Made by a program: the position numbers and the translations under genes. A stretch of DNA of 64,000 nt from Escherichia coli (GTDB lineage Bacteria > Pseudomonadota > Gammaproteobacteria > Enterobacterales > Enterobacteriaceae), in the NCBI RefSeq assembly GCF_003334815.1, contig NZ_QOWO01000017.1. The stretch is one strand, 5' to 3'. The notes under the pieces were generated by a model. That model made no database searches, was not told where the DNA came from, and saw nothing but the letters and a program-made list of their open reading frames with translations. Positions 45,523 through 46,334 of this stretch are shown here, in pieces (position 1 is the stretch's first letter; every line of letters starts with the position of its first letter).

Positions 45523-45528
45523 TAACAA

Positions 45529-45555
45529 TTCCCGATAGTCTTTTGCTATCGGGAA
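45529..45555 (+). terminator. Hairpin terminator after mutS
   Basis: Stem ttcccgatag/ctatcgggaa with a 7 nt loop immediately after the mutS stop. Confidence 0.55.
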
Positions 45556-45627
45556 TATTAACGACAACTGACGAATAAAATAAAAACACCCTGTATAATA
45601 GGAAAGCTTATTTTACAGGGTAAAACC

Positions 45628-46284
45628 ATGCCATCTACACGCTATCAAAAAATCAATGCCCATCACTATCGCCATATATGGGTCGTTGGTGATATTCATG
45701 GTGAATATCAGTTATTACAATCCCGCTTACATCAACTCTCTTTTTTCCCCGAAATCGACTTACTTATTTCTGTCGGCGATAATATTGATCGTGGACCGGA
45801 GAGTCTTGACGTCCTGCGCCTGCTAAACCAACCCTGGTTTACGTCGGTTAAAGGCAACCACGAAGCGATGGCGCTTGAGGCATTCGAAACTGGCGATGGC
45901 AATATGTGGCTTGCCAGCGGTGGTGACTGGTTTTTCGATTTAAATGATTCAGAGCAACAAGAGGCAATAGATCTGTTGCTGAAATTCCATCACCTTCCAC
46001 ATATTATTGAAATCACTAACGACAACATAAAATATGCCATCGCACATGCAGATTATCCGGGGAGTGAATATCTCTTTGGTAAAGAAATAGCGGAGAGCGA
46101 ATTACTCTGGCCTGTTGATCGTGTGCAGAAATCGCTTAATGGCGAGTTACAACAAATAAACGGCGCTGATTATTTTATATTTGGACATATGATGTTTGAT
46201 AACATTCAGACGTTCGCTAACCAGATTTATATTGATACCGGATCGCCGAACAGCGGGCGGCTGTCATTTTATAAAATAAAGTAG
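45628..46284 (+). CDS. pphB: Serine/threonine protein phosphatase 2 (lambda-PPase-like metallophosphatase)
   Basis: 218 aa; metallophosphatase motifs GDIHG, GDNIDRG and GNHE; conspicuously AT-rich compared with neighbours. Confidence 0.92.
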   Translation: MPSTRYQKINAHHYRHIWVVGDIHGEYQLLQSRLHQLSFFPEIDLLISVGDNIDRGPESLDVLRLLNQPWFTSVKGNHEAMALEAFETGDGNMWLASGGDWFFDLNDSEQQEAIDLLLKFHHLPHIIEITNDNIKYAIAHADYPGSEYLFGKEIAESELLWPVDRVQKSLNGELQQINGADYFIFGHMMFDNIQTFANQIYIDTGSPNSGRLSFYKIK

Positions 46285-46285
46285 T

Positions 46286-46311
46286 CTCATGCTTCTTCTG
46301 TGAAGCATGAG
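46286..46311. terminator. Hairpin terminator between pphB and ygbI
   Basis: Stem ctcatgcttc/gaagcatgag; on the minus strand it is followed by a U-rich run. Confidence 0.55.
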
Positions 46312-46334
46312 TAACCCGGTGTTATTGCAGGCCA

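Follow-up and report, generated by a model that had tools for sequence, protein, structure and literature searches.

The inverted repeat lying between mutS and pphB in the analysed window, a stretch of 64,000 nucleotides of Escherichia coli K-12 DNA, is most readily interpreted as an ordinary hairpin at a transcript end, since, in published transcript maps, the mutS mRNA has its 3' end at this repeat. According to this reading, to which we assign a probability of about 0.6, the repeat folds in the RNA of the + strand and represents the terminal stem-loop of the mutS messenger. The initial annotation had proposed, plausibly, that the repeat serves pphB, either as a hairpin sequestering its ribosome-binding site, possibly in response to temperature, or as a DNA operator, and it is this interpretation that is corrected here toward the mutS transcript end. 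Both genes are encoded on the + strand: mutS occupies positions 42961..45522, with the 5' end of its mRNA at 2857024 (window 42892) and the 3' end at the hairpin, and pphB (b2734) occupies positions 45628..46284. Window coordinates are converted to NC_000913.3 positions by adding 2,814,132.

The hairpin and its conservation

A check of the sequence found the two 8-bp arms, ACCCTGTA (45588-45595) and TACAGGGT (45614-45621), together with the TATAAT hexamer, the AGGG motif and the ATG of pphB (45628), exactly at the coordinates first given for them. The repeat is longer than first noted, with 13-nt arms that are complementary at 12 of 13 positions and 8 nt between them. The resulting RNA stem-loop (45588..45621, + strand) comprises a left arm (45588-45600), an apical part (45601-45608), and a right arm (45609-45621), and in its RNA form gains two further pairs, G45601.U45608 and G45602-C45607, which close an AAAG tetraloop (45603..45606, + strand) where nearly all the natural variation of the element is found. 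The outer stem contains four G-C pairs and, in most strains, T45587-A45622 as a ninth outer pair. The right arm includes the likely Shine-Dalgarno sequence of pphB, AGGG (45617..45620, + strand), located 7 nt before the start codon.

The folding energy of the hairpin is -17.0 kcal/mol. Its 101-nt context folds with a z-score of -2.84, and the 84-nt segment 45557-45640 with a z-score of -4.43, none of 3000 dinucleotide shuffles folding as well, while a perfect inverted repeat of at least 8 bp appeared in 42 of these 3000 shuffles (1.4%). An energy of -17 kcal/mol per 40 nt is reached at 120 loci, or 1.1% of window positions, and the hairpin stands out only against its own AT-rich composition, not by its absolute energy in a GC-rich window. 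When searched against Rfam at E-values up to 10, it returned only a chance match to a TMV pseudoknot.

Three other features surround the element, all described on the + strand. A first hairpin, with an 11-bp perfect stem and no U-tract, directly follows the mutS stop codon (45528..45556); a conserved A-rich run (45574..45586) lies just 5' of the second hairpin and reads, on the - strand, as a U-tract after the stem; and a C-rich, G-poor stretch (45622..45750) covers the start of pphB and constitutes a candidate Rho-loading (rut) region. The C/G ratio of these 129 nt is 2.19, a value that places them among the highest 0.34% of all 129-nt windows across the 64 kb.

Of 5426 E. coli genomes, 5205 contain the element, each time as a single copy, and it is not a dispersed repeat. 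Over a length of 43 nt, it is identical in 3396 of the 5205 genomes and differs at one position in the other 1809; the variants inspected alter only loop position 45606 or insert bases in the loop, and the stems are identical across all sampled E. coli. Other Escherichia lineages show loop changes, the replacement of G.U by A-U at 45601, or that of G-C by G.U at 45616. The last of these, a C-to-T change in E. albertii, keeps the RNA pairing on the + strand only and breaks the symmetry of the DNA. Similarly, the first hairpin carries a compensatory change from U-A to A-U in E. albertii and only loop changes elsewhere. When 11 Escherichia-type spacers were tested for covariation, the result was not significant (54 of 500 shuffles reached the observed score), because the stems scarcely vary. 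In Superficieibacter, another repeat (CGTGAAA...TTTCACG) occupies the same place between mutS and pphB, and the left arm is absent where hipA replaces mutS upstream of pphB. Separate conservation of a -10 element and of a Shine-Dalgarno sequence could also explain the conservation of the arms.

The mutS transcript end and the rival readings

In the SMRT-Cappable-seq data (Yan 2018, Supplementary Data 1), the mutS mRNA extends from 2857024 to 2859753 on the forward strand, covers b2733 and is labelled 'novelTTS'. Its row gives a count of 246 reads for the start; 23 reads stop at the termination site, 10 continue past it and 4 stop within 50 bp, with a median read-through of 375 nt. The termination site, 2859753, corresponds to window position 45621, with which the right arm ends, and lies downstream of the first hairpin (45528-45556), which the mapped transcripts run through. 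The operon variants reported, one with b2733 and one with b2733 and b2734, have a common start. Given that A-tailing makes the T and the following AAAA at 45621-45625 indistinguishable, the mapped 3' end carries an ambiguity of 0-4 nt and is given here as 45621..45625 (+ strand). This end comes from a single long-read data set, generated by A-tailing and oligo-dT, where the genomic AAAA abuts the site and internal priming or processing is conceivable.

A Rho termination region was reported at 2859755 (+ strand; window 45623), with a Rho score of 4.54 and p = 2.7e-10 (Adams 2021, Supplementary file 2). The upstream/downstream reads were 71/39 in untreated cells and 69/172 with bicyclomycin, and recomputing the ratio from these counts reproduced the score; the coordinate itself does not represent a mapped end but the best breakpoint found with coverage windows of 800 nt. 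A pphB promoter de-repressed under bicyclomycin would look alike. The Term-seq lists of the same study contain no 3' end at 28596xx or 28597xx, mutS being weakly expressed. The + strand continues after the stem with AAAACC (AAAACCAUG), without a U-tract, so the second hairpin is not a classical intrinsic terminator, and a terminator scan of the sequence did not place 45588-45621 among its listed terminators. An intrinsic terminator on the + strand was considered for its stable G+C stem, and is ruled out by the missing U-tract together with the Rho score. The observations fit a Rho-dependent end: downstream reads rise with bicyclomycin, the RNA beyond the stem is C-rich and G-poor, and the mapped 3' end coincides with the stem foot. 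The stretch 45622-45750 is taken as untranslated because the Shine-Dalgarno sequence would be paired in the read-through RNA. In a large RNA-seq compendium, mutS and pphB are not called co-transcribed and show a correlation of 0.47, which fits an efficient but leaky termination.

The promoter of pphB itself bears on which transcripts would carry the hairpin. The TATAAT hexamer (45594..45599, + strand), within the left arm, is probably the -10 element of pphB, and an ancestral one, because homologues in other contexts keep TGnTATAAT. In these homologues the motif precedes the ATG by about 30 nt, and in seven of them it is perfect. The corresponding K-12 sequence is CTGTATAAT, with the upstream TG one base off the extended -10 register and no good -35. 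The spacer from mutS to pphB shows an RpoD holoenzyme SELEX peak and an H-NS mark (PMC3946193), and TAAAAA (45581-86), in the A-rich run, has been proposed as a -10 element (Shimada 2014). No row of the SMRT-Cappable-seq tables (Yan 2018) starts at 28596xx or 28597xx. Likewise, the portions consulted of three further supplements hold no entry for pphB or 28597xx (Cappable-seq, PMC4782308), for pphB (ROSE, PMC10301672), or for pphB or b2734 (Kim 2012, PMC3415461). Within this partial coverage of the transcript-start data sets, no start belonging to pphB only was found. From TATAAT, transcription would begin at about 45606. The initial annotation had made its messenger hairpin depend on a start upstream of the left arm; since TATAAT sits inside this arm, the start of the putative pphB promoter probably lies downstream of it, and transcripts from this promoter would be devoid of the left arm. 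This argument leaves the mutS read-through mRNA untouched.

It is therefore very unlikely that the hairpin acts in the 5' UTR of pphB's own mRNA, where it would control translation by masking the ribosome-binding site and might serve as an RNA thermometer. The conserved stems and the full pairing of the Shine-Dalgarno sequence whenever the whole hairpin is present would suit such a regulator. However, in the partially covered data sets no pphB-specific start was located upstream of 45588, both candidate sigma-70 promoters (TAAAAA and TATAAT) would start inside or after the left arm, and Rfam returned no family. Neither does temperature open the helix in silico, the energy being -19.4 kcal/mol at 30 C and -15.2 kcal/mol at 42 C, with negligible melting. 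The Shine-Dalgarno sequence of the read-through RNA stays paired from 25 to 50 C (unpaired probability of at most 0.001, or 0.1%), so the hairpin is not a thermometer; in RNAs beginning at 45593 or 45606, the unpaired probability is about 0.47. Thus, of the sequestering hairpin first proposed, its formation in + strand RNA and the position of the Shine-Dalgarno sequence in the right arm stand, but the RNA known to carry it is the mutS transcript. Masking of the Shine-Dalgarno sequence in the mutS read-through mRNA is plausible. The second suggestion of the initial annotation, a DNA operator, would have some repressor bind over the -10 element and start site of pphB, and we regard it as improbable. 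The repeat brackets and overlaps TATAAT, its conserved arms and variable centre resemble those of many operators, and the TATAAT of Superficieibacter is likewise surrounded by a repeat. Nevertheless, no positive evidence for it was obtained: the half-site centres are 26 bp (about 2.5 helical turns) apart and thus on opposite faces of the helix, one copy per genome makes no regulon apparent, and strains without the neighbouring regulator ygbI still carry the element unaltered. Moreover, the E. albertii change breaks precisely the symmetry that a DNA-binding protein would use while sparing the RNA pairing, and an RNA 3' end at the foot of the element needs no protein to be explained. Two known sites were also discarded. 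The spacer contains no CRP box, the nearest weak matches being inside pphB at 46002 and 46195, and a LexA box does not fit, as CTGT and ACAG are 20 nt apart instead of 8. pphB is listed as a CRP SELEX target.

Two alternatives remain. Read leftward, the stem is followed by GUUUUUAUUUUAUU, so that the canonical combination of stem and U-tract exists on the - strand only, and an intrinsic terminator could stop antisense transcription coming from pphB before it reaches mutS. The A-run 45574-45586 behind this U-tract is conserved, the Superficieibacter repeat is also followed by a T-run on the - strand, and antisense transcription within pphB exists, with a Rho region at 2860217 (- strand, score 5.9). 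However, Rho already ends this antisense RNA near window position 46085, the SMRT-Cappable-seq tables hold no - strand termination site at 28597xx, the E. albertii change produces an A.C mismatch in - strand RNA, and a promoter-like match that the element contains on the - strand clashes with this role, which makes it a doubtful explanation. It is also unlikely that the pairing is functionless, with conserved -10 and Shine-Dalgarno regions complementary by chance and the 3' end as a by-product. The covariation result and the 1.4% of shuffles with a perfect 8-bp repeat would allow it, and a genome has thousands of intergenic regions, so that a few coincidences of this kind are expected. Against it, no shuffle reached the observed folding energy, variation in more than 5000 genomes and several species falls nearly all in the loop, one-sided changes keep the pairing, and an RNA boundary coincides with the stem foot in two independent data sets.

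Composition and origin of pphB

The product of pphB, first annotated as lambda-phosphatase-like, is a Ser/Thr phosphatase of this type: PphB matches the Metallophos family (PF00149, 2e-17), the equivalog-level NCBIfam model NF007425 with 467 bits (cut-off 332), and the lambda phosphatase structure 1G5B in the PDB (E = 3.7e-58). The gene is also as AT-rich relative to its flanks as had been claimed. Its GC content is 42.5%, against 53.1% for the window (z = -3.0), a level to which no more than 0.4% of the 657-nt windows descend. Among 48 long ORFs, pphB ranks last for both GC and GC3, the measure by which codon-level composition was judged (z = -2.56), with a GC3 of about 0.42 versus 0.62 for mutS and 0.52 for ygbI. 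The spacer between mutS and pphB has 33% GC.

Old horizontal acquisition, suggested from composition at the outset, gains support from the homologues. These have 40-48% GC in each sampled genus, where the adjoining mutS has 56-60%, and the nearest phage relatives (P1 Ppp and NinI) show only about 46% identity. The context is variable: pphB adjoins mutS in Escherichia, Pseudocitrobacter, Superficieibacter, and further Enterobacteriaceae; it is found on the opposite, upstream side of mutS in Salmonella; and its relatives appear on AlpA-type islands in other genomes, as well as in phage P1 and lambda-like phages (sequence comparison; PMC7232297). An unsystematic look at 45400-46450 noticed no insertion scars (direct repeats, integrase, or tRNA). 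pphB thus looks compositionally foreign and anciently acquired, and is a long-standing resident of the locus, not a recent island. The foreign appearance of pphB was already known in outline (PMC7232297, PMC4209514), and the mutS-rpoS region is a classic mosaic, whose mosaicism, along with the compositional oddity of pphB, is long established.

A proposed mechanism and its relation to known systems

Taking the hairpin as the end of the mutS messenger, transcription from the mutS promoter would pass the first hairpin (45528-45556) and then the second (45588-45621), which, devoid of a U-tract, would not act as a classical intrinsic terminator. RNA polymerase would then move into the C-rich beginning of pphB, which would go untranslated, and most transcripts may be stopped there by Rho. 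Subsequently, 3'-to-5' exonucleases such as PNPase or RNase II would shorten the RNA as far as the base of the stable stem-loop, producing the observed end at 45621-45625. Dar and Sorek reportedly described, in 2018, the trimming mechanism behind hairpin-protected Rho-dependent 3' ends. A minority of transcripts reads through as a mutS-pphB bicistron. In this read-through RNA, the Shine-Dalgarno sequence, being part of the right arm, would be held by the hairpin, making the RNA poorly translatable and, hence, exposed to Rho. pphB probably has a weak, H-NS-covered promoter of its own, with the TATAAT of the left arm as its -10, and RNA from this promoter, beginning beyond the left arm, would have a free ribosome-binding site.

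A further, more tentative possibility is that the element discriminates between transcripts according to their origin. As the arms would be made of the pphB -10 region and the Shine-Dalgarno sequence, the hairpin would form only in RNA arriving from mutS; the mutS-derived RNA would be untranslatable, cleared by Rho and trimmed to a stable mutS 3' end, and the RNA started at pphB would be translated. If this were true, the Superficieibacter repeat, with its unrelated sequence, the same layout, and its absence where hipA lies upstream, would represent a convergent insulator.

The significance of the proposed account is modest. It offers a concrete explanation of how mutS, a repair gene of essential function, may be insulated from an AT-rich acquired gene 105 bp downstream, and would also account for the very low expression of pphB under laboratory conditions. 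In addition, it would provide a further case of a U-tract-less hairpin at a Rho-dependent transcript end, here also masking a ribosome-binding site.

The closest known systems are the protective stem-loops at the 3' termini of Rho-dependent transcripts in E. coli (Dar and Sorek 2018, as cited in PMC7815308). The element shares with them a stable hairpin without a U-tract, a 3' end 0-4 nt from the stem foot, a bicyclomycin-sensitive read-through, and a C-rich, G-poor, untranslated stretch beyond. However, here the hairpin would be built from the -10 and Shine-Dalgarno sequences of the downstream gene, thereby affecting the translatability of pphB, and the trimming at this site is a proposal. 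With intrinsic terminators, it shares the G-C pairs at the stem base, an energy of about -17 kcal/mol and the location in a 3' UTR, the - strand even having a U-tract; contrary to them, the stem is followed by AAAACC, the end maps to the stem foot instead of 7-9 nt downstream, and the boundary is Rho-sensitive. As in ribosome-binding-site-sequestering hairpins and RNA thermometers (ROSE, fourU, rpoH), the Shine-Dalgarno sequence is buried in a helix that immediately precedes the start codon; this helix, however, is far too stable to melt at 30-42 C, the probable pphB start is located downstream of its left arm, and it matches no Rfam family. Finally, the locus recalls the H-NS- and Rho-mediated xenogeneic silencing of acquired AT-rich genes (PMC9335307, PMC7815308), given the AT-richness of pphB, the H-NS mark in the spacer (PMC3946193), and the rise of both sense and antisense transcription at pphB with bicyclomycin (Adams 2021), but pphB has long been resident at its locus and is not a recent island.

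A stem-loop at the probable end of the mutS transcript

The inverted repeat upstream of pphB proved to be real and longer than the initial annotation had described, with two 13-nt arms (45588-45600 and 45609-45621) complementary at 12 of 13 positions. As RNA, this single-copy element folds at -17.0 kcal/mol with an AAAG loop, and none of 3000 dinucleotide shuffles of 45557-45640 folded equally well (z = -4.43); its absolute folding energy is unremarkable, with 120 loci as good in the GC-rich window. An Rfam search with the element gave no family match.

The position of the element can be compared with transcript ends mapped by SMRT-Cappable-seq, which reads full-length primary transcripts. 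Its termination-site table has one row at the locus, 2857024-2859753, forward (Yan 2018, PMC6131387 Supplementary Data 1), which covers b2733 (mutS), bears the tag 'novelTTS' and counts 246 start-site reads, with 23 reads ending at the termination site, 10 passing through and 4 ending within 50 bp, and a median read-through of 375 nt (PMC6131387), that is, within pphB. Since pphB lies at 2859760-2860416 in NC_000913.3, genome coordinates equal window coordinates + 2,814,132, and the termination site 2859753 is 45621, the final nucleotide of the right arm. Because the method A-tails the RNA and the four genomic bases after 45621 are A, the true mutS 3' end can be anywhere in 45621-45625. The operon table holds b2733 and b2733|b2734 variants with a common start (PMC6131387), so a mutS-pphB read-through mRNA exists, whereas no row starting at 28596xx or 28597xx was found in these tables, and thus no pphB-only transcript was called in this data set. 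In an RNA-seq compendium, mutS and pphB are not classed as co-transcribed (correlation 0.47; PMC10392735).

An independent bicyclomycin experiment gives a Rho termination region here, its best coordinate being 2859755 (+) (Adams 2021, PMC7815308 Supplementary file 2), equivalent to 45623. The reads upstream/downstream of it were 71/39 in untreated cells and 69/172 with bicyclomycin, with a Rho score of 4.54 and p = 2.7e-10 (PMC7815308); recomputing it as (172/69)/(39/71) gives the listed value and so confirms the order of the read columns. Taken together, these data indicate that most mutS transcripts stop at the foot of the hairpin and a minority go on, at a Rho-sensitive boundary. Because AAAACC comes after the stem on the + strand, the element is not a classical intrinsic terminator, and the 129 nt beyond it have a C/G ratio of 2.19 (top 0.34% of the window), the composition expected for a putative Rho-loading site. 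Trimming of a Rho-terminated RNA by 3' exonucleases is expected to leave an end 0-4 nt from the foot of a stem. The mutS RNA would be stopped by Rho and then probably trimmed back to the hairpin foot. The most satisfactory account is that the element is a Rho-associated stem-loop at the 3' end of the mutS mRNA; in the read-through RNA it would bury the pphB ribosome-binding site, whether incidentally or adaptively.

The pphB leader and other readings of the repeat

As first proposed, the right arm holds the likely pphB Shine-Dalgarno sequence (AGGG, 45617-45620). The hairpin had been suggested to sequester it, possibly in a temperature-dependent manner. Sequestration stands for RNA containing the left arm, where the unpaired probability of this site is <=0.001 at all temperatures from 25 to 50 C. 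The fold weakens from -19.4 to -15.2 kcal/mol between 30 and 42 C with the site paired throughout 25-50 C, leaving the thermosensor idea unsupported. Sequestration would not carry over to the gene's own mRNA, which probably lacks the left arm. A TGnTATAAT motif ~30 nt 5' of the ATG is kept in pphB homologues from unrelated contexts, including Salmonella (L022), an island (L030), a locus with a divergent gene upstream (L006), Superficieibacter (L009, L010, L028), L011 and L029. Its E. coli counterpart, TATAAT at 45594-45599, lies within the left arm, with the TG one base off. SELEX with RpoD holoenzyme placed a promoter, with an H-NS mark, in the mutS>pphB spacer, which its authors guessed to be TTAACG-17-TAAAAA (45558-45586; PMC3946193). 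A start from either candidate, TATAAT or TAAAAA, would be inside or after the left arm, so that the gene's own mRNA probably lacks the hairpin; in RNA beginning at 45593 or 45606, the Shine-Dalgarno is ~47% unpaired. An experimental pphB start site was not found in the accessible parts of the Cappable-seq, ROSE, Kim 2012 and SMRT-Cappable-seq supplementary data. Antisense to pphB there is a Rho termination region at 2860217 (-), ~46085 (Rho score 5.9; Adams 2021, PMC7815308), which implies transcription of pphB on both strands, with Rho suppressing both.

The pairing and the candidate start sites together make a 5' UTR regulator or RNA thermometer of pphB's own mRNA highly improbable. Three further readings, like this one, are without direct support. 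A - strand intrinsic terminator has the right geometry, a stem and then GUUUUUAUUUUAUU on that strand, and is quite unlikely; so is a DNA operator, a reading that the initial annotation had also proposed. The 43 nt of 45588-45630 are identical in 3396 of 5205 E. coli genomes and differ at one position in the other 1809, and in the inspected variants only the loop is changed (the G at 45606 is replaced by A in ST131 and by T in others, or three bases are inserted). In other Escherichia lineages and Pseudocitrobacter, changes also fall in the loop, with two pairing-preserving exceptions: 45601 G to A, which turns G.U into A-U, and 45616 C to T in E. albertii, which turns G-C into G.U and keeps pairing in + strand RNA only, not in - strand RNA or DNA symmetry. 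Pure coincidence of the arms is unlikely; the covariation test was not significant (54 of 500 shuffles reached the score) because the stems hardly vary. Superficieibacter has a different repeat, CGTGAAA...TTTCACG, around TATAAT between mutS and pphB, and a relative with hipA upstream lacks the left arm, a single case that may be seen as suggestive.

Neighbouring hairpins and further features

A first hairpin (45528-45556), with a perfect 11-bp stem 6 nt past the mutS stop and a U-tract on neither strand, is run through by mapped mutS transcripts on their way to the second one (45588-45621). Its stem has one compensatory change, U-A to A-U, in E. albertii; in ST131, a T-to-C change at the loop edge creates a C-G pair. 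The 50-bp gap between the convergent pphB and ygbI contains a perfect 10-bp hairpin (46286-46311; CTCATGCTTC/GAAGCATGAG), terminator-like on the - strand in a terminator scan; it probably serves as the terminator of ygbI, or acts in both directions. Within pphB, a perfect 9-nt palindrome (45690-45710; TGATATTCA / TGAATATCA, 3 nt apart) lies over the conserved GDIHG codons.

Elsewhere, the divergent ygbI-ygbJ intergenic region holds a near-consensus CRP box (47211-47226; TGTGAATCAGATCACC, one mismatch). Repeated CGGTTTATCCCCGCTGGCGCGGGGAACAC units at the window end (63555-63919) resemble a type I-E CRISPR array, and every unit has a strong local hairpin. Two identical stretches of 40 nt (4077-4116 and 4352-4391), in which the arms have a tRNA-like structure, suggest duplicated tRNA genes.

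Composition, setting and ancestry of pphB

The window is sequence of E. coli K-12 MG1655, and its region 45400-46400 is matched in 5406 of 5426 complete E. coli genomes, annotated there as mutS / pphB / ygbI. The pphB ORF (45628-46284, +) encodes a 218-aa metallophosphoesterase that matches PF00149 (2e-17), the NCBIfam equivalog NF007425 (467 bits, cut-off 332) and the bacteriophage lambda phosphatase 1G5B (E = 3.7e-58). Its reported AT-richness relative to the flanks is borne out, with 42.5% GC and GC3 ~0.42 against 56.1% and 0.62 for mutS and 51.6% and 0.52 for ygbI; the 105-bp mutS-pphB spacer has 33% GC. Compared with every 657-nt window of the 64 kb, pphB has z = -3.0 (0.4% are as low), and it ranks lowest in both GC and GC3 among the 48 long ORFs. 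Low GC is a trait of the gene family, not specific to K-12: homologues in Escherichia, Superficieibacter, Klebsiella, Salmonella and other Enterobacteriaceae have 40-48% GC, against 56-60% for the adjacent mutS.

The gene lies 3' of mutS in Escherichia, Pseudocitrobacter, Superficieibacter and two further lineages, on the opposite side of mutS in Salmonella (locus comparison; PMC7232297), and elsewhere on AlpA-type islands, neighbourhoods that fit an old phage-related acquisition. In O157-type E. coli strains (locus L019), homology with K-12 ends precisely at the pphB stop codon (46284), which places pphB on the conserved side of the mutS-rpoS variable region; beyond it, hydroxyarylic acid decarboxylase genes replace ygbI-ygbN. 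In Klebsiella spallanzanii, another mosaic variant, pphB follows mutS and an additional 276-aa ORF, and hok/gef-family toxin genes flank it on both sides.

Natural E. coli repeatedly show IS1 insertions and IS1-mediated deletions at pphB (L013, L018 and search hits H1 and H24); one breakpoint falls within the hairpin, after TATAA (45598), in strain KCTC 2571, and with another, all sequence from the first hairpin on is lost. The start codon is TTG rather than ATG (45628) in E. coli F3_13_1_3, and the gene is frameshifted in strain BS-01. It appears to be dispensable in some lineages.

The closest phage relatives (P1 Ppp and lambdoid NinI) are only ~46% identical, which points to a phage-related pool as the source and to an old rather than a recent event, in support of the old horizontal acquisition initially proposed. 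The foreign-gene inference is right, yet already known, since there is ample documentation that the mutS-rpoS region is a mosaic shaped by horizontal exchange (PMC4209514). The hairpin at the mutS end is uncharacterised so far, and is already in public data as an unannotated 'novelTTS' row.
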